Shown: in pieces, positions 7,800 through 51,599 of the stretch
How positions within the stretch are numbered: position 1 is the stretch's first letter
Layout: each line of letters starts with the position of its first letter
Assembly: GCA_051382305.1 (NCBI GenBank)
Contig: JBBCAV010000131.1
Location: 1-55,642 of the forward strand
Length of the DNA stretch: 55,642 bases
Direction: 5' to 3'
Origin: Bdellovibrionota bacterium FG-2
GTDB taxonomy: Bacteria; Bdellovibrionota; UBA1018
Position numbers and translations under genes: made by a program
Notes under the pieces: generated by a model
Told to the model about the DNA's origin: nothing
The model's database searches: none
The model's input: the letters and a program-made list of their open reading frames with translations, nothing else

Positions 7800-8111
7800 A
7801 TGATTGGTTATGGAACCAGTTTTAATTCCTTTTCCGAAACGCTCCTCGCCATGAGCCAGAGAGCCAAATCACTAAGGCTAACCCAAAACTGGACCCAACA
7901 GGAGATCGCCGATCGCTCGGGCGTTGGCGTTGCCACGATCCATCGCTTCGAAAAGACGGGACAGGTTTCAATCGAAAACGCACTGCGAATTGCGACCGCA
8001 CTAGGCGTCGAAGCCACGTTTGAGCGGCTCTTTGAAACGCCAAAATACAAATCACTCGATGAGGCATTAGGGCCCTCCACCACATCGACGAGAAAGCGCG
8101 CTCGAAAATGA
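7800..8111 (+). CDS. XRE-family HTH antitoxin (HipB-like)
   Basis: WTQQEIADRSGVGVATIHRFEKTG HTH; ATGA overlap with hipA. Confidence 0.88.
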   Translation: MIGYGTSFNSFSETLLAMSQRAKSLRLTQNWTQQEIADRSGVGVATIHRFEKTGQVSIENALRIATALGVEATFERLFETPKYKSLDEALGPSTTSTRKRARK

Positions 8112-9349
8112 AAATTGAAAAAGGCCTCAAGCCCGTCACGCTCTTGAATGTGCATCTTGAACTAGAGGGAACATCAAAGCGCAAAGTGGGGATGCTCGCA
8201 AAGAAGGACCGCGAACTTCTTTTTGAATATGACCACGAGTTTCTACAAAGTGGCTTAGAGCTCTCGCCTTTTTGCCTCCCCCTCAAATCTGGCGTCACAG
8301 TCGGAGATCCCTCCGTTTTTCAAGGGCTGATGGGTGTTTTCGAGGACAGTCTACCCGATGGTTGGGGCCGTTTACTCTTAGACAGACGGATCGCACAGGC
8401 TGGGCTTTCTCCGGCAAGTTTTGGCCCGCTTGATCGCCTGGCCTTTGTCGGTTCACATGGGATGGGTGCTCTCGTCTACGAGCCTGAGATAGAGCAGATC
8501 ACACCAACCGTTGTCGACCTCAATCAGGTTGCTTTGGAGATTCAAGGCGTGCTTAATCACACGGACATAAAGGAACTTGATCGACTGCTCGCACTAGGCG
8601 GCTCACCGCAGGGCGCACGCCCCAAGGCTCTTGTACAATTAAGCTCAGACGGGAAAATAGTCCTCTATGGCGCACAAGCCATTCAACCCGGCTTCGTACC
8701 CTATCTCGTCAAGTTTAGATCCAAGGGGGACGACGAACACACTGGAACCCTCGAGTACGTTTATGCCCGAATGGCAGCCCTTGCCGGAATCGACCTTCCC
8801 GAGACGCGCCTCCTGGGACGAAAGAAGAATCGCCCTGGCTATTTTGCTATTCGGCGCTTTGATCGCGACGGCGGAAACAAATTACACAATCATACGCTTT
8901 CGGGGTTACTGCAGGCGCCCCACACTTATCCCGCTCTGAGTTACCGCGAACTTCTACTCGCAACTCGCAAGCTCACGAGAAGCGAAAAGTGCGTTTCGGA
9001 GATGTTTCGGCGCGCTTGTTTCAATGTCTTCGCCAAAAACCGAGATGATCATGCTCGGAACTTTAGTTTCCTCATGGACGCAAATGGAAACTGGCGCCCC
9101 AGCCCGGCCTACGATTTGACCTACTCTAGCGGCCCCGGAGGAGAACACATGATGCTCGTTGCAGATGAAGGACGAAATCCCACAACGCAACACCTTAAGG
9201 CACTCGCTCACGAAGTGGGCCTCAAACACCCAGGCCCAATCATTGAAGAAGTGCGAGCGGCGGTCAGCCAATTCGAAGCACTCGCGATAGAGGAAAAACT
9301 CCCAAAGAAACTGCGCGATACAGTGGGCCGGGCGCTTTTCGTACAGTAA
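8108..9349 (+). CDS. hipA: Type II TA system HipA-family kinase toxin
   Basis: DSLPDGWGR (HipA-N), GSPQGARPKA, NRDDHARNFSF, SPAYDL. Confidence 0.93.
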   Translation: MKIEKGLKPVTLLNVHLELEGTSKRKVGMLAKKDRELLFEYDHEFLQSGLELSPFCLPLKSGVTVGDPSVFQGLMGVFEDSLPDGWGRLLLDRRIAQAGLSPASFGPLDRLAFVGSHGMGALVYEPEIEQITPTVVDLNQVALEIQGVLNHTDIKELDRLLALGGSPQGARPKALVQLSSDGKIVLYGAQAIQPGFVPYLVKFRSKGDDEHTGTLEYVYARMAALAGIDLPETRLLGRKKNRPGYFAIRRFDRDGGNKLHNHTLSGLLQAPHTYPALSYRELLLATRKLTRSEKCVSEMFRRACFNVFAKNRDDHARNFSFLMDANGNWRPSPAYDLTYSSGPGGEHMMLVADEGRNPTTQHLKALAHEVGLKHPGPIIEEVRAAVSQFEALAIEEKLPKKLRDTVGRALFVQ

Positions 9350-9384: not shown

Positions 9385-10701
9385 TCACGCTGCCTTGTCT
9401 TGTTGCGCAGCAGGCAGCGTCACACTTGAAACCCCAAAACGCTGCTCCAACGCCACGATTCTCGCCTCAGTATTGGGATGGACCTTCGCACGCATATGAA
9501 GCCGTCCCAAAGTCTTGACGTGCCGACCTTGAAAATTCAGAAGATCTAGCTTACGAAGCGCATTAACCAAATCATTGGAATTAGCGCCCAGCTTCTCTAC
9601 CGCATAGCGATCCGCTTCTTGTTCAAACTGAAGATTCTTTTGGCCCAAGAAACGAAAACACACAAAAAATGAACCCATCGCAATGAGGCCACCCCAGAGA
9701 AACGACGAGCCTGACCGAGTGACAAGAAACACGAGAAGATTCAGTGCAATTGACGCAAAAGCTAGACTCAAAATCAACGCGACGGAAAAGAGCAGTCTCC
9801 GTCTTAAGTGCCGAAGGGCTATGTGAGCGGCTTCGTGATCAATCACGGCTCGCAACTCATCGCCATTTAAGACTCCAATAAGAGTTTTGGAGACAAGAAG
9901 AAGGGGACGAAAAATCCACCGCCCCCACGAAAACCCGGCGACAAGCGCGGTCGCACTATCCATCCGATCAAGATCAAAAATACGAAGCTCGGGCCGCGCT
10001 AGCTTCGCTTTAGAAAAAGTATCGTTCACCGCGCTCGAAACGACCGCTTCTTCACCCTGCTCTGAGGGCACCTTTATAGGGAGCGTTTTGCGCAAGAAAA
10101 AAGGCGCCAACGCAAAGTTCACAAAGAGCCCGCCGCCAATTCCAAAAATCCCGCCTAGGATTACTAGGATCAAAGTCACCTCGCGTCCAGCCTGAACCCA
10201 CACGGCCAACCCCAAAGCAACTCGGACCGACAATAACATGACGCCCAGATAAATCACGGCTCCGAACGCCGCGCCCATAAAAACTTTTGTGGCAAGCCCG
10301 AACGCTAAAGTAGGGCGCGCACTGCGGAGAGCCCCGGAAGCCTGCGACCCCTTTGTTTCAAAGCGCTTCTCCAGCCTAGCCTGGATCCAGCCTTGTCCCA
10401 AGACCGCTGCGAGGAACAAAAGATTGGCCGAAACAGGAAACACCTTGCGCACCTCGCCTGTTCCTAGAAAAAGGACAAACTGAAACAGTAGAACGCAAAA
10501 GCCGGTCAAACGAACACGCTGAAGCTCATGATCCTTATCATACTCCGGCTCGCCTTCGGGCGCGCCTTTGCCCTCTCGTCCCAGCTGCTCCAGATAGCGC
10601 CCAAAATAGTCGGCCCAAAGTGCGAACAAGACAACCGGAATGGCCGTCAAAATCGCGACACCCCTCATTGCAATTTGTGGATCAAGTGCGTCCAGTTCCA
10701 T
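9385..10701 (-). CDS. M48-family membrane zinc metalloprotease
   Basis: Multiple TM segments, ELRAVIDHEAAH (HExxH), EQEADRYA, HPNTEARI. Confidence 0.88.
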   Translation of the reverse strand: MELDALDPQIAMRGVAILTAIPVVLFALWADYFGRYLEQLGREGKGAPEGEPEYDKDHELQRVRLTGFCVLLFQFVLFLGTGEVRKVFPVSANLLFLAAVLGQGWIQARLEKRFETKGSQASGALRSARPTLAFGLATKVFMGAAFGAVIYLGVMLLSVRVALGLAVWVQAGREVTLILVILGGIFGIGGGLFVNFALAPFFLRKTLPIKVPSEQGEEAVVSSAVNDTFSKAKLARPELRIFDLDRMDSATALVAGFSWGRWIFRPLLLVSKTLIGVLNGDELRAVIDHEAAHIALRHLRRRLLFSVALILSLAFASIALNLLVFLVTRSGSSFLWGGLIAMGSFFVCFRFLGQKNLQFEQEADRYAVEKLGANSNDLVNALRKLDLLNFQGRHVKTLGRLHMRAKVHPNTEARIVALEQRFGVSSVTLPAAQQDKAA

Positions 10702-10708
10702 ACCTATG

Positions 10709-10735
10709 TCTTCGGCAAGACTCTCCGAAATATGA
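10709..10735 (-). promoter_or_regulatory. Possible sigma28-type promoter for the M48 gene
   Basis: Minus strand TCAT-N15-GCCGAAGA, 7 nt before the ATG. Confidence 0.5.
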
Positions 10736-10761
10736 AGGGGAAAAGCAGCTCAAAATAAGTC

Positions 10762-10788
10762 TAAAGACAGTTAGTTAAATTCCGAAGA
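10762..10788 (+). promoter_or_regulatory. Possible sigma28-type promoter for the motor-like operon
   Basis: TAAA-N15-TCCGAAGA. Confidence 0.5.
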
Positions 10789-10832
10789 GCTTACTGGGGA
10801 AGGAGACTCGGGTCTCTCACCACGGACATATA

Positions 10833-11927
10833 ATGGACTTTTATAAGAAAACAAAGAGCGCAGTCGGTGTATCACTCAGAATCCTTCTTGGATTGAGCGG
10901 GCTCATGTCCACAGGGCATGCCGCCGATAAGCCTCCTGAGCGCAACTTTTATGAGGTATTGGACGATCTAATGTCTGACTTTGAATATGACCTGAAAAAC
11001 GGAAACGTCTCGGGCATGCGAGACCTCTCCATTCGAAATGTGGGCATGAGCGAAAACATCCCCGCTTCATTCAAGCCCCATCTTGAACTTCTCGTCACCG
11101 AGAAGATCATGAAGAATATGAAAACACGGGTTATTCAATGCCTGCCTTGTCGCGCGAAGCGCACAACACTTAATGGCGATCAAGTCGTCATTACTTCTCC
11201 CGAAACCAACCCTTCGGAGCTCGCACGAATTGCAAAACTTTCAGGAATTCAAAATTTTCTCGACATCTCGTTTTCCTATCAACCCAACGGTCTGATCCTA
11301 TCGATGTATGTCTCAGAGCCCGAATCAGGCTCCATCGTTTGGTCGCGAAGTTACAACTCCGAGACCTCACGCGCCTCGGCGTTTAGAAGAGGCGTTGACT
11401 ACTCGCAAGTCGACGACGCCCGCAAGTTCACCGAATATGTCCCCGGCATTCAGTATCGACTGACCATCTACTACTTCTTTGAACCCAATGTTCCCAAAAC
11501 CACCGGTTGTCTCGGGGGCGGACTCAGGATGATGGAACGCTATGATAATCGGAAGAAAGAAGTCGGCTTCGAATTTGACTACATTAAGGATGCCTCGACA
11601 CTTGTCAACTCTGCTGCGGCTACCACCGCAAATTTATGGTCGGGAATCAATGTTACCCTTCTCTTTATGCACTCCTGGAACCTTATTGGAGATGAGGAAA
11701 ACTTTAACAAAGTTCGAAGTAATATCTTTTTAGGCATCGGAGGTACTTATACCTCCGGCTTTTTGGGCGGCTTAGGACGAGGCGGTTTTGAATGGCGCCT
11801 AGGCAAACACTTTGCGGTGTCTGCCAACGTAGGCTATCGGCCGGAGTCCACCGTGTTTATTCCACTTTCAACGGGATCAACAGTCAAGGGGGGCGAGTAC
11901 GGTTTAGGGATTGGGTATCTTTTTTAG
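10833..11927 (+). CDS. Exported protein: CsgG/FlgO/LpoB-like N-domain plus C-terminal outer-membrane beta-barrel
   Basis: Leader ending GHA; alpha/beta pattern ending LILSMYVSEPESGSIVWSRSY; alternating Gly/aromatic strands ending YGLGIGYLF. Fold assignment by eye. Confidence 0.6.
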   Translation: MDFYKKTKSAVGVSLRILLGLSGLMSTGHAADKPPERNFYEVLDDLMSDFEYDLKNGNVSGMRDLSIRNVGMSENIPASFKPHLELLVTEKIMKNMKTRVIQCLPCRAKRTTLNGDQVVITSPETNPSELARIAKLSGIQNFLDISFSYQPNGLILSMYVSEPESGSIVWSRSYNSETSRASAFRRGVDYSQVDDARKFTEYVPGIQYRLTIYYFFEPNVPKTTGCLGGGLRMMERYDNRKKEVGFEFDYIKDASTLVNSAAATTANLWSGINVTLLFMHSWNLIGDEENFNKVRSNIFLGIGGTYTSGFLGGLGRGGFEWRLGKHFAVSANVGYRPESTVFIPLSTGSTVKGGEYGLGIGYLF

Positions 11928-11946
11928 ATTTTTTAGGGAGGCTTGA

Positions 11947-12741
11947 GTGCAAACAGGTTTGAGGATTGCAGCATTGATCATCGCGGTGAGTATGAGCGGG
12001 GCTTCTTGTAGCACGCTTCGCTCGCTCTTTGCGTTGGACAGTGGAAAGAAGCAAGCCTCGGCTCCCATTGAAAATCCATTTGGAGAATATTACCCGGGCG
12101 CCCAAGCAGAGCTACATCAAAACATGATCCTTCGAACTAAAAAGGGGGATCGCTCAATCGAACTTGAACTTCCGAAGAGCCACCAGGAGATGTCCGATTT
12201 AGTGATTCCGGTAAATCCTGCATTTAACGACGGAAGAAGCGCCGCCTTTTCCAGTTCTATCAGCCCCTCTACGGTAACCGGTCCAGAAATGTCCACCGAT
12301 GGGTTGATTGACGAAAGCTATCGCGCGCGCGCGCCCGGCCTGAGCGATCGGGAACTGACACAAGCCATGCCCACTAATCTTGCAGAAGACGACGCCAAGA
12401 GAAGAGAAGTTGAACAAAGCATGGGACTCGTGCCTTCGGATACGGGAGTGCCCGTAAGGGAGAACAGTTATCTCGCGGCCATTGATCACATCAAACAACT
12501 TTATAAATATGGTCGAATTGAAGCGGCGCTTCTGGAACTTGATGAACTTCTCCGACTCTACCAAACGGATCCAAAACTTTACTCCATGAGGGGGACGCTG
12601 CTTGATCGGCTTGGAAAGTCGGAACTTGCACTTAAGTCATGGAACCAATCCCTACGATTCGATCCCTCTAACAATGGTCTCAAACAATTCATTGAACGCC
12701 GACAACAACGCACACCGGCAGGGGGGACTGGGGTAAAATGA
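11947..12741 (+). CDS. TPR-containing lipoprotein
   Basis: Lipobox-like GASC; TPR pattern LYSMRGTLLDRLGKSELALKSWNQSLRFDPSN. Confidence 0.85.
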   Translation: MQTGLRIAALIIAVSMSGASCSTLRSLFALDSGKKQASAPIENPFGEYYPGAQAELHQNMILRTKKGDRSIELELPKSHQEMSDLVIPVNPAFNDGRSAAFSSSISPSTVTGPEMSTDGLIDESYRARAPGLSDRELTQAMPTNLAEDDAKRREVEQSMGLVPSDTGVPVRENSYLAAIDHIKQLYKYGRIEAALLELDELLRLYQTDPKLYSMRGTLLDRLGKSELALKSWNQSLRFDPSNNGLKQFIERRQQRTPAGGTGVK

Positions 12742-15089
12742 CAAAACTCAAAACCCTCTTCACCATTGCTCTCGTAACTCTAACGACGCTCGCACTTTCA
12801 ACGGCTGCAAGCGCGGGCCCCGGGAAGTTTAATGCCGCCGAGATTACCCGCACGACGACGGAAAACCAAATTCGCAATTTGCTTGAGCCCCTCTTGGCCA
12901 AATACTGTAGAGATGAATGCAAACTCCTTTCCGTATCCGCGACTGTAGATGTCGCCGTGCCCGAAGAACTCGCCCCCGGTTTTGATGACCTCACGCCCGC
13001 CAATACGCTTTCTCTTGCGGCCTCTTCTGCACGCGTGAAGATTCTTGTGGACGAAAAGGTTGGTCCCGTTTCTCGTGGGCGACTCGTCGATATGATTCAG
13101 CAGTATTTGGACACGCTCGAATTTCAGGTGAAGCTCGATGTCCAATACAAACCCTTTCCCCAGCCTTTCGGTTCCGACGCCAAGATCTCAGACCTCAGGG
13201 ACCGAGTTTCCAAACAATTTAGGAATACGATCCAAGAGATTTTTCAGCAGTTCTGCCCGGATAACTGCCTCCTAGGGGACTTCAACCTCAAGGCCGAAGC
13301 AGTCAACGCCGAAGAAGCCCAGTTTGGGTCGTCTACCGAATTTGTACAAGACGGAGCCTTGGCTCTGAAAATTCGCGAGATATCCGCCACACTCATTTTA
13401 GACGAAGAGCTCCCACCCGAAGAACGCGCCAACATTTTAGAATTAGCCAAACTCAAAACGAACTACCTCAAAAACGTCACGCTTAACGCCATGCCGATTA
13501 AGTTCCCCCGGCCCGACAAGACGGCTATTTCGGGCGCGAGAGAGAAAGCACTGCAGGCCAAGCAAAAAACTTCCGAGAGCAATAGCGCAAGCACGACTGC
13601 AAAGACCGAAAACAACGCAAACACCAATGCGAGCACGACCGCAAAGACCGAGAACATCAGCAATAACAATAATAACGAGAAGAACGAGAGATCAGAGGTC
13701 ATCAAGAGAACCGAAATCATCGAGCGGGTAGAAAATGGCGATGCCTTAAAAGAAGAATTTAAGCAAATGCGGGTCTTTGGTCTCATCTTCGCGTGCTCCG
13801 TTATTTCACTTCTTCTCTTCCTGGCGGTGGCGGGCTTTCGCCCTCGCACCTCTTCTGGTCCCAGCGGGGGCTCTGTCCATCGCGTGATTCAAAGCCTCGC
13901 GGCAGATCCGATTTCTTCAAACGCGCCATCGACCTATCGCGCCCCAGATCCAGTTGCACCCCACGAAGAGCTGCGCGTCCCCGCGCTCTCCAAACGTTAT
14001 GAAATTGAACGCCTTGTCGAAGAACTAACGGCTATCTTTGCCCAGCAACCGAAGGTTGCCAAACAAGTTTTCACACGCATCCTGACCGAGGAGGGCATCG
14101 AGACTACGGCCGAGTACATTCATATTTTTGGCGAAGGCATTGTGCTAGACATGGTTCGAGACCCCAGCCTTCAAACCGATGTCATTGGTTTGATGGAGTT
14201 CTACTCGAAGAACACCATCGAAATCACCGATGATGAAAAACTTGAACTTCTACGAAAACTCCATAACCGAACCATTGCCGGGAAACTCACGGTCCTTGGT
14301 AACCGCTCCTCGTCCATGTTTGATTTTCTTACAGAGATGGATGGACCCCAAATTATTGAAATGCTTCGTGGTGAATCTGACACCTTGAAGTCGATCGTCC
14401 TTACGCAATGCGATCCCCAAAAGCGTGCAGCAGTCTATGCCCAACTTGATGATAAGACGCGACTCAAACTTCTCACTGAACTTTCTCGAATTGACTATCT
14501 GCCGAAGGACTTTATCTACAATGTGGCCAGCGCCTTGAAACGCAAACGTCGCGACAATCCAAGACTCAACACCGAAGCACTCCCTGGGTCTGAAGTCCTC
14601 GTGGGACTCTTGGAGAGAACGAGCGCCGAAATGCAGCGTACCGTAATTCGAAATCTTGAAATGGCCAGTCCGGAAAGTGCACGGACAGTGAAGAGTAAGC
14701 TTGTCAGTATTGAAACGCTGCGTTTCTTACGAGACAGTCAACTCCTCGAGGTGGTCCTCAATCTCAAGCACGACGAACTCTTGATCTTTTTGAAGGGTGC
14801 CTCGGCTGAAGTTCGCAACGCCGTATTTTCAAAATCACCTAAAGAACTTGTTTTTGAGCTTGAAGAGGAGCTCGGCGGACTTGGCACAATTAGCCGCGAA
14901 GACTATCAAGGCGTTGAACGCAAGATTCTCAATCGCATGAAGATGATGGCAACGGAGGGGCTAGTAAACCTTGTCGAAACCAATGACCGACTCTTCTCAG
15001 AAACAAAGGGGGGTTCGGGGTTTGTTGAGGCGGGTCCAAACGCAGGAGGCCGTGGTGCGCAATCAGGCTCTTCACGGAAGGTCGCATGA
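12738..15089 (+). CDS. Membrane-anchored FliG-domain protein (FliF-like periplasmic repeats + TM + FliG N/M/C)
   Basis: Signal peptide ...AASA; two ~116-aa repeats with CxxxC; TM aa 346-367; FliG-M-like FDFLTEMDGPQIIEML...; FliG-C-like LLIFLKGASAEVRNAVF...KILNRMKMMATEGLVNL. Confidence 0.8.
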   Translation: MTKLKTLFTIALVTLTTLALSTAASAGPGKFNAAEITRTTTENQIRNLLEPLLAKYCRDECKLLSVSATVDVAVPEELAPGFDDLTPANTLSLAASSARVKILVDEKVGPVSRGRLVDMIQQYLDTLEFQVKLDVQYKPFPQPFGSDAKISDLRDRVSKQFRNTIQEIFQQFCPDNCLLGDFNLKAEAVNAEEAQFGSSTEFVQDGALALKIREISATLILDEELPPEERANILELAKLKTNYLKNVTLNAMPIKFPRPDKTAISGAREKALQAKQKTSESNSASTTAKTENNANTNASTTAKTENISNNNNNEKNERSEVIKRTEIIERVENGDALKEEFKQMRVFGLIFACSVISLLLFLAVAGFRPRTSSGPSGGSVHRVIQSLAADPISSNAPSTYRAPDPVAPHEELRVPALSKRYEIERLVEELTAIFAQQPKVAKQVFTRILTEEGIETTAEYIHIFGEGIVLDMVRDPSLQTDVIGLMEFYSKNTIEITDDEKLELLRKLHNRTIAGKLTVLGNRSSSMFDFLTEMDGPQIIEMLRGESDTLKSIVLTQCDPQKRAAVYAQLDDKTRLKLLTELSRIDYLPKDFIYNVASALKRKRRDNPRLNTEALPGSEVLVGLLERTSAEMQRTVIRNLEMASPESARTVKSKLVSIETLRFLRDSQLLEVVLNLKHDELLIFLKGASAEVRNAVFSKSPKELVFELEEELGGLGTISREDYQGVERKILNRMKMMATEGLVNLVETNDRLFSETKGGSGFVEAGPNAGGRGAQSGSSRKVA

Positions 15090-15607
15090 ACCCCGTCACG
15101 CCGCTCACAGCAAGAATCAAGCCCTCCGTTTCGGTTTTGAAAAATATTCGACTCTTGAAAGTCTTTAGCGATCAGGAACTCTCCAGCCTCATTCAACACG
15201 GAGAAGGCATGGCCTGCGAAGCTTATAATAACATAGTAATCGAAGGCGAAATGACCTGGGGCCTGTATCTCATCTTGGATGGCATGGTCGGCGTCTACAA
15301 ACGAAACAAACTTACCGGCGTGGACTACGATGTCGGACAATTGCGAACCGGCAACTTCTTCGGAGAAATGTCTCTCGTCGACGAATACCCGCGCTCTGCC
15401 ACCGTACGAGCGCTATCGGATTGCCAACTTTTTTCGATAACAAAAGAAGGTTTTCAACAATTCCTTTCGAAGAATCCGAGCTCAAAATCCAAATTTTTTG
15501 AGAGTTGCGTAGAGACCCTGGTCCACCGACTTCGGGAGTTGGACGAGAACTACGTCATTAGTCAATACCAGCTTTGGAAAACAGCGCTCAAAAAGGAGGC
15601 GGCTTAA
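15086..15607 (+). CDS. Stand-alone cyclic-nucleotide-binding domain protein
   Basis: GNFFGEMSLVDEYPRSATVRA phosphate-binding cassette; no HTH. Confidence 0.92.
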   Translation: MNPVTPLTARIKPSVSVLKNIRLLKVFSDQELSSLIQHGEGMACEAYNNIVIEGEMTWGLYLILDGMVGVYKRNKLTGVDYDVGQLRTGNFFGEMSLVDEYPRSATVRALSDCQLFSITKEGFQQFLSKNPSSKSKFFESCVETLVHRLRELDENYVISQYQLWKTALKKEAA

Positions 15608-15608
15608 C

Positions 15609-16391
15609 ATGAACTTTTCATCCCTTTTTGGACTTAGCTTTGGCGCTTACATCATGTACTACGCGCTCAGTAGCTCCGGACCGGGCCTTTCGACCTTTCT
15701 TGATCTTCATGGTTTCATGATTGTTTTCGGGGGAACAGCGGCCGCAGCGAGCATTAGTTTTCCGTTTGGCAAAGTACTGTCCCTGATCAAAGTCTTTATC
15801 CTGCGCGTCCTAGGCCGCTATAAGGCCGATTACCAAGGCGTGATTACCCAGCTCTTGGAGCTTAATAAGAAGGCGAGTTCCGGTGTGACCGGGTTAGGCG
15901 AAGCACTGCCCGGGATCAAAAACGAATTCCTCAAAGAAGCAGTGGGGCTTGTCTCCTCCGGTGTGCTGACGGAGGTCGAAATTCGCGCAGCCTTGGAACA
16001 ACGACTTAAGACGGTAGAAGCGCTTTTTATGAAGGAAGCAAATATGTTCCGCACTATCGGGCGCTTTCCTCCTGCCTTTGGACTGCTCGCGACCACCCTG
16101 GGGATGATCAGCGTTTTGCAGCAGATGGGGCAACCCGAAGCGCAGAAACTCATCGGTCCCGCGATGTCTATCGGATTGATTGGAACTTTGTACGGGATCA
16201 CGCTAGCGAATATGGTGTTTCTCCCGATTGCCGAGAATTTGTCCGAGCGCACTCACGAAGAAGTTATGTTGCGAAAGGTTATTATCGAAGGGGCGTTGAT
16301 GCTCAAGGCGCAAGTTAATCCGATTTCGATGAGAGAGAATTTGAATTCGTTCTTGTTGCCTAAGGACCGAGTGGTTCGAAAAGCCGCTTAA
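15609..16391 (+). CDS. motA: MotA/PomA-family stator protein
   Basis: MIVFGGT, FPPAFGLLATTLGMI, GTLYGITLANMVFLPIA, QVNP. Confidence 0.93.
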   Translation: MNFSSLFGLSFGAYIMYYALSSSGPGLSTFLDLHGFMIVFGGTAAAASISFPFGKVLSLIKVFILRVLGRYKADYQGVITQLLELNKKASSGVTGLGEALPGIKNEFLKEAVGLVSSGVLTEVEIRAALEQRLKTVEALFMKEANMFRTIGRFPPAFGLLATTLGMISVLQQMGQPEAQKLIGPAMSIGLIGTLYGITLANMVFLPIAENLSERTHEEVMLRKVIIEGALMLKAQVNPISMRENLNSFLLPKDRVVRKAA

Positions 16392-16403
16392 GAGGAGAGA
16401 ACC

Positions 16404-17180
16404 GTGTCTGTCGCCAAGTCATTTTTGAAGCTAGTCAAGAAGGGAGAAGCGCGAATTGAGCGCCGGCGCAGCAACGACGTGCCGGAGCAAGCAGCAGACG
16501 ATGAATCGAATTGGCTCGTATCCTATGCAGACATGATGACTTTGCTTTGTGGCTTCTTTATCATGATGTTCAGCATGTCCAAACTCGATGCGCCCCAGTT
16601 TGAGCCTGTGCGAGAGGCCGTAGCAAAGCAGTTTGGCGGAGATTTCAAATCCCCTACCAAAGCGTTGGCCAAGTTTGTGTCACAAGTGCTTGACCAAAAC
16701 GGAACGGACAAACAAGCCATTCTGAAATCTGATCCGTATGGCGTGACAATTGTTTTCAAATCGACCGTATTTTTTGACAGCATGGGTGCAGACATGAGAC
16801 CCGAAGGACGCGCGGTGCTCGTGAAACTCGTTGAGTCTCTCGCATCTCGTCAAGAGATGGAGATGAAGAAATATAAGATCGTGGTCGAGGGTCACACCGA
16901 TAGCCGGCCCGTCGTCAGTGGTCCTTACCCTTCCAATTGGGAACTTTCAGCTTCAAGAGCGTCAAAAGTCTTACGCCTGTTTCTTGATCGCGGCTTTTCG
17001 CCTTCACCCCTCACCGCCATAGGCTATGCGGATAGCCACCCGATTGCTGACGCACGACTTCCAACTGGTGAACTGAACGAAGACGCAATGAACCAGAACC
17101 GACGAGTTGTCGTACGCGTTTTGGAACCAAAAGTGGACGCGATTCCCATGCCAGATGGGCCGGCAACTACTGCCCATTGA
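16404..17180 (+). CDS. motB: MotB/PomB-family stator protein
   Basis: WLVSYADMMTLL with the conserved Asp; OmpA-like domain EGHTD, SNWELSASRA, GYADSHP, NRRV. Confidence 0.95.
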   Translation: MSVAKSFLKLVKKGEARIERRRSNDVPEQAADDESNWLVSYADMMTLLCGFFIMMFSMSKLDAPQFEPVREAVAKQFGGDFKSPTKALAKFVSQVLDQNGTDKQAILKSDPYGVTIVFKSTVFFDSMGADMRPEGRAVLVKLVESLASRQEMEMKKYKIVVEGHTDSRPVVSGPYPSNWELSASRASKVLRLFLDRGFSPSPLTAIGYADSHPIADARLPTGELNEDAMNQNRRVVVRVLEPKVDAIPMPDGPATTAH

Positions 17181-17226
17181 CGGCGCGAGGAATTCCCTAG
17201 AAACTTATGATTGGGGGAACCGTGTC

Positions 17227-18120
17227 ATGCGATGGAGCTGTCCTCATTGTGCTGCAAACTTAGCCGTTACAGATGAGAAATTGGGATCAGGCTGGTCTTT
17301 TTCACGTTGTTACAAATGTGGAGGATTTGCTTTGGTGAGAAGGTCAGATGTGAACCTCATCAAAGTAGATAAGGCGCCAGCAGGGGAGCACGTCCTGCTA
17401 CCTGAGCCGTCTGAAGATCCCATTTTGGGTCAACAGGCTGCAGATCGTTTGGGAAAATATATTGGCACCAAGACAATGCCAAAAAATATGGGGCCTATCA
17501 CGCATATTGATGGCAAAACAACCTTTCCCCCACCGCTCCCGGAACTTACCGAACTTGTGACTTCGCCGCCGCCACTGCCTCCTCCTCCCGCGGCTCGCGA
17601 TTGGACTCGAGCTATTCTTCCGACTGCCATCGGAATTGCCGGCATCATGGCAATCGGCTCGGGCGTTTACATTTACTGGAAGGGCGAAGCCCTTTATGAA
17701 CGCGCAAAAATAGCGGCAAAAACTGAAACCCTTCGTAACGAAAGCGCAAAACCTGCACCAGTTTCGTTCACAGAAAACAACGACGTAGTGAGAGCACCAT
17801 CCATGCCCCTTACTGATCAAGTTCATCAAAATGCGATGGCCCCTACTCGTGTTAATACACCGGAGCCCGTGCCACCGCCCACAGTGGCCGCAGTAGCGCC
17901 GGAATCTGCACGAATGAAAATTAGAGCAAGACTGGCCGCAAAACTCCACACCGGCCCAGGTCTGGAGTTTCCCGTCGTCGGGGTTGCAAATCCCGAGACC
18001 ACTTATCCGGTGATCGACTGGAGCAATCGTTGGTTCAAAATTTCACTCCCAGGTGAGACCGGCGAAAAGTCCAAGAACCAAGCGTGGATTCGCAATGATC
18101 TCATTCAGCTCGTGCAATAA
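17227..18120 (+). CDS. Zinc-ribbon / Pro-rich / TM / SH3b-like protein
   Basis: CPHC...CYKC at the N-terminus (MJ0042-like); one TM; LHTGPGLEFPVVG...WFKI...AWI SH3b pattern. Start moved to ATG 17227. Confidence 0.8.
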   Translation: MRWSCPHCAANLAVTDEKLGSGWSFSRCYKCGGFALVRRSDVNLIKVDKAPAGEHVLLPEPSEDPILGQQAADRLGKYIGTKTMPKNMGPITHIDGKTTFPPPLPELTELVTSPPPLPPPPAARDWTRAILPTAIGIAGIMAIGSGVYIYWKGEALYERAKIAAKTETLRNESAKPAPVSFTENNDVVRAPSMPLTDQVHQNAMAPTRVNTPEPVPPPTVAAVAPESARMKIRARLAAKLHTGPGLEFPVVGVANPETTYPVIDWSNRWFKISLPGETGEKSKNQAWIRNDLIQLVQ

Positions 18121-18127
18121 TTAATCG

Positions 18128-19624
18128 CTATCGAAGAAGACATTTCCAGATATCAATTTGCTTTGCAGGATAATTCCATCGAGATCCCTGCAGTTTCCAG
18201 AATTTTTCACACCTCGCATTCGGAAACATAGGTGGAGCATCATATCGATTATCACTAATATATAGGACGGGTTTGATGAGCCTGGGCCAAGCAGGCCCTA
18301 CTCCATCAGAGACCGAGAGAGGGCGCCATTCATCTCGGGCCCGCGTCTCTCGGGGAATCCAACTCACAACATTGCGTCCCTGAAGTGCAAACGACGCCTG
18401 TGAGGCCGTTTGATAGCGCGAGGCAAGAACGGGCCAGTGACTCGAAGCTGGATCAAGTTTGCCATTCACTTGATCGTCAAAAAAAGCAGGGAGCTTTGAC
18501 CACCCATACAGATCATTCGTTACATCCAGTCGGGGATCAGGGTTTCTCGAAAGCGCCTGCATCAGGACACCCCCGAGAGGAACAACACAACTCACTAGCA
18601 CAAATGCAGAAACCACTACTGCCTGACCCGTTTGAAAAAAGGCCAATCGTCTAATCAGCCCTGCCTGAAAATTATGATGATAACAGTAAACAAAAGCGAG
18701 CAGTGTTGGCCACCAAACGATGAGGGCCCAGTGGGGTTTGAAATCTGAAAAGATCGGCTGAATAAGGAACACGATCGCGGCAGGAAGAATCCAAACCCAT
18801 AAAAATTTAATCGGTTGTGCCACTCGACTAGGGTTCCGGACGAAGTTGAACAAAGAGAAAAAGAAAAACCCAATCAAAGGCAGACCCGCCAGAAGTCCTT
18901 GCGCGCCCCAGAAACGAAGGGCACGAACCCCAGAAGCGCCGCCCCCTCCGGCATGACGCTCCTGGATTTGATAAAGAATCGAGGCCCATTCATGAGTCGA
19001 GTTCCAATAGAGAATCGGCACAAACCCCAAAATACTTGCAGATAAGACAAGAATAAATCCCGCCTTCAAACGTGGCCGCGGCGCAAATAACAAAATACTC
19101 AGCAGGGCTGAAGCAATCGCAAGTAAGCCTGAATATTTTGAAAGGACCAGAAAAAGCCCCCCCCCAAAAAGAAGAAGTTTCGTAGGGAAGGACAGCCGCT
19201 CTTCAAAACAAAGACCAAAGGTTCCAACCAAAGCGGCGGTGAAGCCAAAGAACAGGGGGAGATCAGGCACCATCATCCAAGAAAGCGCAAAAAAGCCAGG
19301 AAAAGATAGGAGCAATACCCCGGAGAATCGGGTGAGCAAAACTCCAGTACTTCGCAACCAGGCTAACCCTAACGCGAGGCTCGAAGCAGCAAAAAAGGCG
19401 GCAGGAAACCGGACGACCATCACGGAGTTAGGACCAAAAATCGGCCCCAACAAAAACTGAGAAACCGTGATACTCCATGCGACTGCCGGGGGATGATAAG
19501 CATACCCCAGTGCGGGATTCTGGGCCAAGACCCAATAATAAGCTTCGTCATCCGTGAGACCAAATAGTTGCCCAAAAAGAAGTATGAGGAAAAAGAAAAC
19601 TAGGGGCAACCAGCGCCGTGGCAT
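18128..19624 (-). CDS. ArnT/PMT-like (GT-C fold) membrane glycosyltransferase
   Basis: DDEAYYWV, YAYHPPAVAW, VRFP, PDLP, LSKYSG; many TMs. Confidence 0.88.
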   Translation of the reverse strand: MPRRWLPLVFFFLILLFGQLFGLTDDEAYYWVLAQNPALGYAYHPPAVAWSITVSQFLLGPIFGPNSVMVVRFPAAFFAASSLALGLAWLRSTGVLLTRFSGVLLLSFPGFFALSWMMVPDLPLFFGFTAALVGTFGLCFEERLSFPTKLLLFGGGLFLVLSKYSGLLAIASALLSILLFAPRPRLKAGFILVLSASILGFVPILYWNSTHEWASILYQIQERHAGGGGASGVRALRFWGAQGLLAGLPLIGFFFFSLFNFVRNPSRVAQPIKFLWVWILPAAIVFLIQPIFSDFKPHWALIVWWPTLLAFVYCYHHNFQAGLIRRLAFFQTGQAVVVSAFVLVSCVVPLGGVLMQALSRNPDPRLDVTNDLYGWSKLPAFFDDQVNGKLDPASSHWPVLASRYQTASQASFALQGRNVVSWIPRETRARDEWRPLSVSDGVGPAWPRLIKPVLYISDNRYDAPPMFPNARCEKFWKLQGSRWNYPAKQIDIWKCLLR

Positions 19625-43671: not shown

Positions 43672-43725
43672 CCCGGTTCCTTCGTCTCGCCTTTCGGGGT
43701 GGGTCGCGGGAACCGGTTTTTTTTT
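43672..43725 (+). terminator. Rho-independent terminator
   Basis: CCGGTTCC...GGAACCGG stem followed by a T9 run. Confidence 0.8.
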
Positions 43726-43744
43726 CGCCCTTTTTTCCCACTCT

Positions 43745-43773
43745 TTGACAGCGCGCTCCACCTTTGTCACAAT
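43745..43773 (+). promoter_or_regulatory. Sigma70 promoter
   Basis: TTGACA-N17-CACAAT with extended TGn; GTG start 9 nt downstream. Confidence 0.6.
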
Positions 43774-43782
43774 AGAAGCCCA

Positions 43783-45831
43783 GTGACAGCCAAACGCCAA
43801 TCCAACCGCCGCTCCGAAAAAGGTCAGGCCTCCATCATGGTGGGCATGATGATGATGACCTTTATCGTTTTTCTGGCGTTTGTGATCAACACGGCAATGC
43901 TCATTAATGCGAAGATCAATCTTCAAAACGCCGCGGACTTGGCGGCGTATGCCGGCGCGGCGGCACAGGCACGGCAGCTCAATTACATTTCATTTTTGAA
44001 TTACGAAATGCGCCGGCAGTACAAGAAGTTTTTGTTCCGCTATTATGTGATGGGCAATATCGCACAGGACGAGTTTCCGAGAGGGCCGACGGGGAAAAAA
44101 AAACCGGAATGGAAACCAAACCCTACGGAAGCGAGTTACGGGGTTCCCGCCGTTTGTGTCGTCATGAATCCTGCCGACAACTATTGTCACATTGGAACCA
44201 TCCCCAAGATCGCGATCCCGGCGGCCAGCATGATGGACAAGGTGAATGAGACATTAAGAGTGCAATTGCAGAATATCGAAGACATTCGCCAAGCCAACTG
44301 CGAACAGATCGGACGTCTTAATACTAATTTGCTTATATTTTGGCTCTTTAATGCGGATCATGATTTTTCGAAGCTTGCATCGATGTTCAATGATCCAGCG
44401 CAACAGCAGACTCTACAGACGTTTCGGGGACTGGCTTTTGGTTTAGGATTAGTCCCCAGAGAGGTGCTACTTCGCCTTCGTATTGCGACCCTTGCGAGCT
44501 ACCTCAACGCCCCTCCTCTGACACTTTCTAAAGATAAGGTAGAGGCGCTTAAGGCAAAATCCGATCCGACCTACTATGAGCGCTCCATTCAAGCATTTCA
44601 ATCAGCGTATTATACGTTGGGCAATCACACATTTTCTGATGACTCGATTGAACTCGAGGAGCTGCAAAATCCTGCCCAAATCAAGCTCAACGACATCAAA
44701 GCAGAATTTGATACCTACTCTGTCGAATTTGCACTCGATCCAACCAAAGTAGGTCAAGCAACTGACTGCGTGCCCAATCTTATTCCGGTCTCTGTTCCGT
44801 CCATCACACTCGGCGTCCGAAAGGATTCAACGGTTTTGACCTATTATGCCCTGAGATTGAAAGCGAAAGCCAAAGTCCTGTTCTCCCCTTTTGGCGAGGT
44901 CTCACTCAAAGCCTACGCGGCAGCGAGGCCTTTTGGGAGTCGAATTGGTCCTCCCATTGATTCTGCATTGGGAAATTTTGTGCAAGCAAGTACGGTAAAC
45001 AACGCCTTTAAACCAGGGAGCCAAGGGCTTGCGAGCACAAAGAATTTTATTCCTAACCTCCCTATCGCTGATGGCGAGGTCGCCGTCCGGGGAATGGGTT
45101 GGGACAACGATCTTACACTGGGTGCCATGTATCAAGCCTTGGCCGCGGCTGGCTCGGGCAATATGATTACGCAAGCAAATGTCGAGGCGGGCTATCAGGC
45201 TGCGATGGCCCCAAATCCCTATGAGGGGCGCCGTTACAACATTCCAACGGACCGCTTTCCTGATCCCTTTGTTAAATACTTTGATTCCTCTGATACTTTT
45301 GCGTTTTGGGCACCCCTTGTTTCTCCTGAAATGGCCATAGGGGGGGCGGTTGATGAAACCCTTAATACCGCAATTAAGGAGACTCTGCAAAAACCTCCTA
45401 CCGCCAACGCTTCGAAGGGCGATCCTGAGGGCGACTACAAAAAACTTCTGGATGGAATGATGGCCGCTTTTAAAAGCTACGCCGCGACTTTACGCAAAGG
45501 AGAAGGCGAAGATGGCGAGGGCTTCAACATCGTTCACATTCGCAATCCCTTTAATGCAGGAGGAAAACCTATCACGCTCGGTGGAGGAGAGAGTTCGCCA
45601 CTCATAAAAACCGACGACCCTCGAACGGTCAAAACCTCTTGGAACGACGTCCTCACTTCTGGTTACAAGAAACAGGGACGAGTAGGCTATAGTGTCAAAA
45701 TCGTTTCGTTTGATTCACTCACAAAAAGCAAACAATCTGCAAATGGCGGAATGGGTGGCGGAAGCTGGTCTAACGATCTTGCGCCCAATGATGATGAAGC
45801 GAAGATGGAGATAGATCTGATTAAGCATTAA
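43783..45831 (+). CDS. Tad-domain (TadG-like) pseudopilin/adhesin
   Basis: EKGQASIMVG prepilin-like site, hydrophobic helix, LQNAADLAAYAGA. Confidence 0.85.
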   Translation: MTAKRQSNRRSEKGQASIMVGMMMMTFIVFLAFVINTAMLINAKINLQNAADLAAYAGAAAQARQLNYISFLNYEMRRQYKKFLFRYYVMGNIAQDEFPRGPTGKKKPEWKPNPTEASYGVPAVCVVMNPADNYCHIGTIPKIAIPAASMMDKVNETLRVQLQNIEDIRQANCEQIGRLNTNLLIFWLFNADHDFSKLASMFNDPAQQQTLQTFRGLAFGLGLVPREVLLRLRIATLASYLNAPPLTLSKDKVEALKAKSDPTYYERSIQAFQSAYYTLGNHTFSDDSIELEELQNPAQIKLNDIKAEFDTYSVEFALDPTKVGQATDCVPNLIPVSVPSITLGVRKDSTVLTYYALRLKAKAKVLFSPFGEVSLKAYAAARPFGSRIGPPIDSALGNFVQASTVNNAFKPGSQGLASTKNFIPNLPIADGEVAVRGMGWDNDLTLGAMYQALAAAGSGNMITQANVEAGYQAAMAPNPYEGRRYNIPTDRFPDPFVKYFDSSDTFAFWAPLVSPEMAIGGAVDETLNTAIKETLQKPPTANASKGDPEGDYKKLLDGMMAAFKSYAATLRKGEGEDGEGFNIVHIRNPFNAGGKPITLGGGESSPLIKTDDPRTVKTSWNDVLTSGYKKQGRVGYSVKIVSFDSLTKSKQSANGGMGGGSWSNDLAPNDDEAKMEIDLIKH

Positions 45832-50477: not shown

Positions 50478-51599
50478 ATGGAATACAAACGTCTCCTTGA
50501 ATTGCGGCAAATTTTGAAACGCAAAAGTGCGTTTTTCTTTGGCCCGCGCGCCACGGGTAAGTCTTGGTGGATCAAGCGCGAGCTGGGCAACGCACTGGTC
50601 TTTGATCTATTGGATTCGGATGTCTATTCCAGGTTTTTGCGAAGACCCCGACAACTTGGGGAGGAGTGCCTGGATGCCGATTTAGTCGTCATTGATGAAA
50701 TCCAAAAACTACCCGCACTCCTCGATGAGGTTCACCGACTGATCGAGAAGGATAAAGCAAAACGTTTTCTCTTAACGGGCTCAAGTGCCCGCAAACTAAG
50801 ACAACAGGGCGTGAATCTCCTCGGCGGACGCGCAAGCAATAAGTTATTTTTCCCACTTACGAGTTTGGAAATCTCAGACTTTGATTTAGTGAAATACGTA
50901 AACATCGGCGGCCTTCCTTCAATTTATCTTTCTGACGATCCCGAAACCGACCTCAAAGACTATGTTCAAACCTATCTTAAGGAGGAGATCCAGGCTGAGG
51001 CTTTAGTCAGGAGAATTGACCATTTTGCACGCTTCCTTGATACAATTGGATTGTCATCCGGCCAAGAACTCAACATTGCTCAAGTGGCGAGCGACGCAGG
51101 CGTCCCTCCTCGTACGGTGGCTAGTTTTATTGAAGTAATGAAAGATACGCTCATTGCCTTCGAACTTGAACCCTTCTGCCGCACAAAAACTCGGAAAGCC
51201 TCTACAAAGTCAAAGATTTTTCTATTTGACGTGGGGATCGCTAACTTTCTCAGCGGTCGAAGAACTCTTGTGCCTAAATCCGAAGCTTTTGGTGCGGCCT
51301 TTGAGCACTTCATTATTCAAGAAATTCGTGCGCTACTTTCCTACCAAGGCTCAGACGAATCACTGTCTTACTGGCGCGCTAAAGACCATGAGGTTGATTT
51401 GATCATCGGAAACAGGCTCGCAATTGAAATCAAATCCACAGAACACATCAACGAGCGTCACATCAAGGGCCTGAGGGCGCTACGAGAAGAAAAACTAATC
51501 GAGCGCTACATCATTGTATCACGCGATCCGATTCGTCGCACAATTGATGGCATTGAAGCTTGGCCCTACGCCGCTTTTCTCAAGTCGCTCTTTACTTAA
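50478..51599 (+). CDS. AAA_14 ATPase with DUF4143 (PD-(D/E)xK-like) domain
   Basis: GPRATGKS, VIDEIQK, LTGSSA, GGLP, FDVG, EVDL...IEIKS. Confidence 0.92.
   Translation: MEYKRLLELRQILKRKSAFFFGPRATGKSWWIKRELGNALVFDLLDSDVYSRFLRRPRQLGEECLDADLVVIDEIQKLPALLDEVHRLIEKDKAKRFLLTGSSARKLRQQGVNLLGGRASNKLFFPLTSLEISDFDLVKYVNIGGLPSIYLSDDPETDLKDYVQTYLKEEIQAEALVRRIDHFARFLDTIGLSSGQELNIAQVASDAGVPPRTVASFIEVMKDTLIAFELEPFCRTKTRKASTKSKIFLFDVGIANFLSGRRTLVPKSEAFGAAFEHFIIQEIRALLSYQGSDESLSYWRAKDHEVDLIIGNRLAIEIKSTEHINERHIKGLRALREEKLIERYIIVSRDPIRRTIDGIEAWPYAAFLKSLFT

Follow-up and report, generated by a model that had tools for sequence, protein, structure and literature searches.

The rotor-stator core of the bacterial flagellum consists of FliF, FliG and a stator of MotA5B2 or PomA5B2 type, and we know of no setting other than the flagellum in which FliG and MotAB work together. 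FliF carries three ring-building motifs (RBMs), with a β-collar inserted in RBM3, between two transmembrane (TM) helices. Spontaneous and engineered fusions of FliF to FliG have reportedly been made in Salmonella and Vibrio. Among natural proteins described so far, the closest is the FliF-FliG fusion of the Chlamydiaceae, outlined in a paper that also gives the FliF domain plan: a protein of ~330 aa with two TM helices and, in the cytosol, a FliG-M-like part only, thought to be linked to the injectisome (PMC4768692). Here we describe a natural fusion of 783 aa encoded at positions 12738–15089 (+ strand) of contig JBBCAV010000131.1 (assembly GCA_051382305.1) from Bdellovibrionota bacterium FG-2; the whole 55,642-nucleotide stretch that was analysed is called the window below. 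The protein joins two periplasmic domains to a FliG-like cytoplasmic part and is encoded in an operon with its own MotAB, and we judge it probable, with real room for doubt, that it serves as the rotor-like component in a private rotor-stator module standing beside an ordinary flagellum.

The fusion resembles the flagellar core in that a TM helix is followed by a segment at the position of the FliG-binding tail and by the full FliG N/M/C fold, and in that MotA and MotB are encoded next to it, with plug and OmpA domains. It differs in being one chain where FliF and FliG are two, in having two RBMs where FliF has three, with a hairpin tip of ~20 residues replacing the RBM3 β-collar, and in beginning with a signal-like N-terminus and having one clear TM helix, whereas FliF has a first TM helix. 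It also has a long disordered linker and matches FliF neither in Pfam nor by profile, and its operon is without export-apparatus, rod, hook, FliM or FliN genes. With the Chlamydiaceae protein, as the excerpt describes it, the fusion shares a natural single chain, two periplasmic domains of RBM type and a place outside the classical flagellum, whereas only the present protein, at 783 aa, has the full FliG N/M/C part with a torque helix and is paired with MotAB (PMC4768692). The Salmonella and Vibrio fusions (PDB 8z4d/8z4g) are laboratory-made from true flagellar proteins, in contrast to the natural, old and divergent paralogue described here. Other RBM proteins (SctJ/EscJ/PrgK, SctD/CdsD/YscD and SpoIIIAF/AG/AH) score below FliF RBM3 and none has a FliG domain; unlike the injectisome and sporulation systems, the fusion has no type III secretion or sporulation genes near it. 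MotAB relatives were surveyed in 2025 in a study that distinguishes flagellar from generic ion transporters and, in the portion excerpted, makes no mention of a FliG-fused partner (PMC12505986). Our literature search, which covered few subscription journals, returned no description of the fusion family.

Architecture of the fusion protein

The initial annotation had proposed a single open reading frame (ORF) joining ring-building-type repeats to FliG, and this frame is real: it stays open over 783 aa, its ATG and the stop codon of the preceding gene share an ATGA, its own end overlaps the following gene (start at 15086) by 4 nt, and Pfam recognises FliG_M at aa 538–606 (28.8 bits, cut-off 25) and FliG_C at aa 639–744 (57.8 bits, cut-off 23.3). 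Residues 1–537 gave zero Pfam matches. Against the NCBIfam FliG equivalog TIGR00207 the protein reaches 63.6 bits, well under the cut-off of 226.7; because it carries FliG domains but scores below the equivalog cut-off, it is no orthologue of the flagellar switch protein. A word-indexed family search with 8000 scored candidates returned 136 proteins at E ≤1e-3. Among the 120 matches listed, lengths are 731–839 aa and identities 49–81%, and FliG_M and FliG_C occur together in 118. Their source names, where given, are 'hypothetical', 'FliG C-terminal domain-containing' or, from automatic pipelines, 'FliG', and they originate from metagenome bins of Bdellovibrionota or Oligoflexia type. Residue conservation within the close family, quoted throughout, comes from an alignment of 37 homologues.

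An AlphaFold model of aa 27–271, calculated with 51 aligned sequences, has a predicted local distance difference test (pLDDT) value of 90.4 and shows two tandem domains, each with the order helix-strand-strand-helix-strand. Domain A (aa 30–143; 12825–13166, + strand) has its elements at aa 30–56, 61–72, 93–105, 110–124 and 130–138 and contains the pair C57xxxC61, a conserved APGFDD hairpin tip and a terminal F140-P141; domain B (aa 146–259; 13173–13514, + strand) has its elements at aa 146–172, 177–190, 208–222, 227–240 and 247–254 and contains C173xxxC177 and F256-P257. Both CxxxC pairs lie where helix 1 meets strand 1, and the residues C57, C61, C173, C177, P80-G81, F140-P141 and F256-P257 are invariant in 37/37 homologues. 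Even in a set of 30 distant homologues plus P0001 (31 sequences), the four cysteines, P141 and F256-P257 are still invariant (C59, C63, C176, C180, P144, F259 and P260 in the numbering of the distant homologue P0149). The cysteine pairs probably form stapling disulfides. Aligning the two domains with hhalign gave a probability of 96.6% (E 6.2e-10, 109 columns, 21% identity), and this profile-profile match means that the repeat exceeds chance.

A Foldseek comparison of the periplasmic model with the PDB placed FliF MS-ring chains at ranks 1–7 (E 6.7e-7 to 2.5e-5), with EscJ at 1.6e-3, and the best structural matches of the domains are ring-forming proteins: FliF, EscJ, PrgK, SctD and SpoIIIAG. 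That both domains adopt the RBM fold is therefore well supported by modelling, whereas their descent from FliF is only suggested, because the margin over the common fold is just ~2 Z units. Sequence comparisons gave no link to FliF. The Pfam families YscJ_FliF and YscJ_FliF_C do not match the fusion at E ≤0.01; PF01514 has one site in this genome, in canonical FliF and not in the fusion, and likewise in 80/81 genomes of the order; hhalign against a 40-sequence FliF profile, a narrow one of 62–71% identity, gave probabilities of 0.4–3.5%; and a sequence-profile search of the PDB had no FliF among its 9 matches at E ≤1. The two top hhalign alignments (FliF 238–283 and 56–88) were weak and were rejected as evidence of homology. 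A four-copy oligomer prediction of aa 27–262 with a 51-row alignment scored 0.37 against a mark of 0.42, with one unrelated control at 0.43.

These results bear on several claims of the initial annotation, which had described two tandem repeats with the two CxxxC pairs and a terminal FP, likened them to FliF RBM3 and made its proposal depend on their adopting an RBM fold. The repeats are confirmed by the predicted folds and by the alignment of one domain with the other, and the model does show an RBM fold; the likeness to FliF stands as a matter of fold and is unsupported as a matter of sequence homology. A cleavable signal peptide had also been proposed, and the putative signal peptide at aa 1–26 (12738–12815, + strand) has a lysine-rich start, a hydrophobic stretch of 17 residues and A-S-A before G27, all read directly from the sequence, and may be cleaved there.

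Between domain B and the membrane lies a linker (aa 260–318; 13515–13691, + strand) rich in Asn, Ser and Thr, which varies in length and forms gap-rich, unconserved columns in the 37-sequence alignment. It leads into a charged pre-membrane segment on the periplasmic side (aa 319–345; 13692–13772, + strand), strongly conserved in the same alignment, with seven invariant residues (E326, E329, R330, V331, E332, D335 and E340). Few stretches of the fusion are as well conserved as this segment, which has no nameable counterpart and is located where one would expect a MotB plug or the membrane surface. The single TM helix, V346–F367 (13773–13838, + strand), is a conserved hydrophobic block in the alignment and is followed by a cytoplasmic R-P-R. 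An Asn/Thr-type linker followed by one TM helix is also what the initial reading of the sequence had found.

On the cytoplasmic side, two helices (aa 414–451; 13977–14090, + strand; model helices 2–23 and 25–39, pLDDT 82–93) precede the FliG-like N, M and C domains (aa 452–744; 14091–14969, + strand), with the torque helix around aa 699–712. The predicted model of aa 414–783 has a pLDDT of 84.1, and Foldseek aligned 307–321 columns of it to full-length Aquifex and Salmonella FliG (E 1e-6 to 1e-5), 321 of them in the case of 3hjl. Residues 5–323 of Salmonella FliG correspond to aa 452–745 of the fusion, with residue 5 at model residue 39. As Salmonella residue 5 equals aa 452, the helices at aa ~414–452 would stand, topologically, at the site of the C-terminal FliG-binding tail of FliF. 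Of the order that had been read initially, a FliF-tail-like segment followed by FliG-N, FliG-M and FliG-C, the M and C domains are borne out by Pfam and the N domain at fold level only, with the Pfam N-domain match absent; the FliF tail is recognisable by position only.

Many positions in the FliG part are invariant in the 37 homologues. Compared with the canonical FliG of a genome of the same genus, the fusion shows 21% identity over 234 residues (E 9e-17), and it has lost the EHPQ signature. In the M domain of FliG, an EHPQR motif binds FliM. The corresponding positions are E-H-P-Q in the FliG of T. maritima and of the same genus, whereas the 37 fusions have E546 (37/37), S547 (35/37), L, I or D548, and T549 (37/37). 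This change to E-S-(L/D)-T, with the Glu alone kept, is consistent with a rotor that has no FliM/FliN switch. Beyond the FliG_C domain, a disordered tail ends in K-K-V-[AS]-G-W in about half of the 37 aligned homologues and in R-K-V-A in the window protein; the former ending may be a short docking motif.

An operon with its own stator genes

The fusion gene is one of seven on the same strand between 10833 and 18120, separated by overlaps or gaps of 1–46 nt and flanked on both sides by genes of the opposite strand. Downstream of it lie a stand-alone cyclic-nucleotide-binding protein of 173 aa (15086–15607; PF00027, 61.9 bits), a stator A subunit of MotA/PomA type with 260 aa (15609–16391; PF01618, 70.1 bits) and a stator B subunit of MotB type (16404–17180) with a plug (PF13677, 59 bits) and an OmpA-like peptidoglycan-binding domain (PF00691, 54.5 bits). 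The operon MotA matches the PDB stators MotA of 8ucs and PomA of 8bri at E 9e-30 to 5.5e-29, and falls below every NCBIfam equivalog cut-off (best MotP, 142.5 bits vs 394). The last gene (17227–18120) encodes a protein with a zinc ribbon of the MJ0042 type (TIGR02098, 23.5 bits, residues 41–72), a proline-rich part, a TM segment and an SH3 domain (SH3_3, 23.9 bits, cut-off 27); within the listed ORF 17107–18120, M41 is the likely, though uncertain, start. Upstream, the operon opens with a candidate outer-membrane β-barrel of 364 aa (10833–11927), which has an N-terminal signal-like segment, would be exported and ends in GIGYLF. This protein has no Pfam match, and its language-model look-alikes, which are leads only, include OMP_b-brl and LpoB/CsgG-type clusters. 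The second gene (11947–12741) encodes a 264-aa TPR protein whose TPR matches are all below the cut-off (TPR_2 23.4 bits vs 27); with its hydrophobic N-terminus and Cys21 it is a possible lipoprotein, its lipobox being non-canonical. A scan of 10500–18400 for promoters and terminators remained at chance level (5 found vs 5.2 expected, and 6 vs 9.4).

Gene order was compared across 72 loci from species-representative genomes, counting for each neighbour only the loci with enough flanking DNA. The barrel candidate is a same-strand neighbour of the fusion in 58/58 loci, the TPR protein in 61/61, MotA in 64/65, MotB in 63/64, the cyclic-nucleotide-binding protein in 60/70 and the zinc-ribbon/SH3 protein in 45/60. 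The cyclic-nucleotide gene is missing in nine loci of a subgroup with 39–42% identity and in L015. This last locus, on a 5.6-kb contig, is the sole one, among those with enough flanking DNA, that lacks MotAB and has the zinc-ribbon/SH3 gene directly after the fusion, an arrangement that could be a deletion or a misassembly.

Pfam scans of 37 further ORFs (8 + 9 + 20) in the 55.6-kb window found no flagellar family. On other contigs, the genome encodes canonical FliF, a canonical FliG frame of 339 aa and FlhA. A third FliG-related gene of the same genome (L002:1306–1809, contig C66) encodes 167 aa with little beyond FliG_C (94.5 bits); it adjoins START-domain and PPK2 genes, and there are no flagellar neighbours within its 3.3-kb locus. 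Since the operon has its own MotAB and normal FliF and FliG are encoded elsewhere, a context that the initial annotation had not noted, the fusion is a paralogous module rather than a flagellar rotor whose two proteins have been joined.

The residues expected to face each other in rotor and stator appear to have changed on both sides. We take the torque-helix charges of E. coli FliG to be K264, R281, D288, D289 and R297, and the rotor-facing charges of PomA to be R88 and E96. The excerpted part of the MotAB survey names R281, D288 and D289 as rotor charges of FliG, and R90 and E98 as the rotor-facing residues of E. coli MotA (PMC12505986). The torque-helix region of the 37 fusions has K/R686 in 37, K/R702 in 34, E/D703 in 36, E707 in 33 (E/D in 37), E709 in 34, E/D710 in 37, E711 in 36 and R720 in 35. 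Relative to canonical FliG, the acidic pair (E/D710, E711) and the K264 equivalent (K/R686, 37/37) are retained. The R281 position is acidic (E/D703), with a basic K/R702 one residue earlier, and the R297 equivalent aligns to S719, with the conserved R720 (35/37) one residue later, the alignment register being good to plus or minus one residue in both cases. The canonical FliG of the same genus, by comparison, retains K-R...E-D.

On the stator side, position 90 of the operon MotA is never basic among 64 orthologues (S in 37, A in 12, G in 6, T in 5 and N in 2, altogether 62/64), while K/R87 is found in 64/64, K/R88 in 63/64 and E/D98 in 63/64; a one-residue HMMER gap near E98 aligns this residue to PomA E97 or E96. 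The other MotA of the same genome retains the canonical A-R-K-E-G...E pattern. The fusion and the operon MotA both appear altered in the same region, and these sequence patterns, with a register uncertain by one residue, suggest a co-adapted private interface.

Inheritance of the module and its distant relatives

The N-terminal part of the fusion occurs in 24 of 201 genomes of the phylum, all in one order, and a search of these 201 genomes with the distant homologue P0149 retrieved the same 24. Within the order, 59 of 81 genomes carry the fusion. Of the 59 carriers, 56 have operon-type MotA (at least 56% identity), 52 of them on the same contig as the fusion, whereas it occurs in none of the 22 non-carriers, whose best MotA match has at most 39% identity; the three carriers without it are 64–86% complete and have the fusion near a contig end. 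A barrel orthologue was found in 60/81 genomes, comprising all 59 carriers and G237 (88% complete, at a contig end), and is missing in 21/22 non-carriers. Three genomes that are 97–98% complete (G049, G080 and G216), from the genus with the most f3-family carriers, have no fusion, operon-type MotA or barrel. Fusion, operon-type MotA and barrel are gained or lost as a unit.

Flagellar genes follow a different distribution, with FlhA in 79/81 and FliF in 80/81 genomes of the order. All 22 non-carriers hold both, and 15 of them reach a completeness of 90% or more (as do 63 genomes overall, including 48 carriers). Because non-carriers keep their flagellar genes, the flagellum runs without the module, on other MotA paralogues (23–39% identity).

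More distant relatives of the fusion were collected by an exhaustive search with aa 27–271, which gave 101 representatives at E ≤1e-3. The distant ones among them (18–28% identity, with 18–31% for the subfamily) again have 717–986 aa. Of ten tested, eight combine FliG_M with FliG_C and a ninth has FliG_C alone, the tenth being an unrelated low-complexity protein. An Oligoflexaceae bin and a 'Zetaproteobacteria' bin are among the sources named, and the subfamily was absent from the 201-genome phylum sample searched. Neighbourhoods were examined at 22 metagenome loci (L091–L112), obtained with an 11-sequence alignment. A cyclic-nucleotide-binding gene follows the fusion in 10/22, and upstream are an L,D-transpeptidase in 14/22 and a DsbA-like thioredoxin in 12/22 (e.g. 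L099:5782–10948). The DsbA-like neighbour fits the idea of oxidised CxxxC pairs.

Several observations count against a private rotor-stator module. In the 22 distant loci, a hidden Markov model of 64 MotA orthologues found MotA in none (E ≤1), with control paralogues recovered at 1.6e-30 and 2.8e-9, and no barrel or TPR neighbour was present; a private stator thus accompanies the fusion in the clade of the window and not throughout the protein family, the cyclic-nucleotide partner being the more widely shared neighbour. All loci compared for gene order (72/72) come from metagenome-assembled genomes. A low-complexity linker of 60–100 residues between the RBM domains and the membrane would make a poor torque shaft. 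No carrier without a flagellum was found among the 59, of which 58 have FliF and 57 have FlhA, the misses including genomes that are 64% and 72% complete, so independence from the flagellum rests on the non-carriers and not on the carriers.

These same carrier counts would also be expected if the fusion were an auxiliary or variant component of the flagellar motor itself, such as an extra stator-recruiting ring around the MS/C-ring or the rotor of a second type of flagellum sharing the export apparatus. A stator of flagellar MotA/PomA type, with plug and OmpA domains, would suit such a role, and the distant subfamily, which has a stator of its own nearby in 0/22 loci, might use the flagellar one. 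We nevertheless consider this explanation unlikely, given that 22 of 81 flagellated relatives do without fusion and operon-type MotA (and 21 of the 22 without the barrel) while retaining FliF and FlhA. In addition, the ORFs scanned in the operon and the 55.6-kb window include no flagellar gene, the FliM-binding motif is lost, the stator-rotor charges appear unlike those of the canonical pair in the same genome, and the operon supplies outer-membrane components of its own.

The cyclic-nucleotide gene suggests a further alternative, in which the fusion is a membrane-bound FliG decoy that parks special stators under cyclic-nucleotide control, with no mechanical output. The gene is translationally coupled to the fusion through the 4-nt overlap and is the one neighbour shared with the distant subfamily, both in favour of such a decoy, but two conserved periplasmic domains and a co-inherited barrel and TPR protein would then be needless, and the nine loci of the 39–42%-identity subgroup keep MotAB without the cyclic-nucleotide gene. 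We regard a decoy as highly improbable.

The rest of the window holds features that are separate from the operon. A HipA-type kinase toxin is encoded at 8108–9349 (+ strand; HipA_C 151.9 bits, Couple_hipA 60.1 bits), with a 103-aa ORF upstream (7800–8111, + strand) that could be a HipB-like partner. A 1235-aa ORF at 51592–55299 (− strand) matches no Pfam family at E ≤1e-5, and a 710-aa protein at 43699–45831 (+ strand) has only an N-terminal pilin-type segment like that of TadE/G.

A possible envelope motor

In a private rotor-stator module with the fusion on the rotor side, this protein would be exported N-terminus first and anchored by its one TM helix. The stator encoded in the operon, of MotA5B2 type, held to peptidoglycan via MotB and powered by ion flow, would meet the conserved, charged torque helix of the FliG-like C domain, and this contact could drive rotation. 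In the periplasm, the two RBM-fold domains, probably stapled by their CxxxC pairs, would assemble with each other and, by way of the long flexible linker, may reach the barrel candidate and the TPR protein encoded upstream. Brakes of the YcgR type act on FliG and MotA, and the small cyclic-nucleotide-binding protein is a likely regulator acting in a similar manner on the FliG-like part.

The output of such a machine need not be that of a rotor. ExbBD-TonB and TolQR-TolA transmit force to the outer membrane, and the fusion might be a force transducer of this kind, with MotAB moving the FliG-like domain of one or a few molecules and the linker pulling on the barrel and the TPR protein. The long flexible periplasmic linker, the single TM anchor and the outer-membrane partners in the same operon (58/58 and 61/61 loci) would all suit force transmission by pulling. 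The RBM-fold domains, however, best match ring-formers (FliF, EscJ, PrgK, SctD and SpoIIIAG), the conserved part is the torque helix that in flagella faces MotA, and the known Ton/Tol motors, to our knowledge, grip the TM helix of their partner and not a cytoplasmic FliG domain. ExbBD and TolQR are themselves relatives of MotAB, according to the excerpt of the 2025 survey (PMC12505986). On balance, we think a transducer of Ton/Tol type improbable. A broader proposal, which we put forward tentatively and hold to be possible rather than likely, is that of an autonomous rotary or Ton-like machine, free of an export apparatus, made from flagellar rotor and stator parts, which couples inner-membrane ion flow to a dedicated outer-membrane complex of barrel and TPR protein under cyclic-nucleotide control.

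Returning to the private rotor-stator module, this looks like a second motor-like machine beside an ordinary flagellum, undescribed in the literature we searched, in which subscription journals were sparsely represented. If this is true, a co-evolved FliG-MotAB pair, held in the membrane through FliF-type domains and wired to outer-membrane proteins of its own, would put the flagellar torque interface to a new use, and the apparently altered charges on both partners suggest how two rotor-stator pairs may coexist in one cell without crosstalk. It would also provide a much smaller system, of about seven genes and a one-protein rotor, for studying how 5:2 stators engage FliG, as well as a concrete test case for ideas about pre-flagellar rotors. 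Should the autonomous machine exist, it would add a new class to the known envelope motors and be a living example of a FliF/FliG-MotAB core without type III secretion, which would bear on the origin of the flagellar motor.

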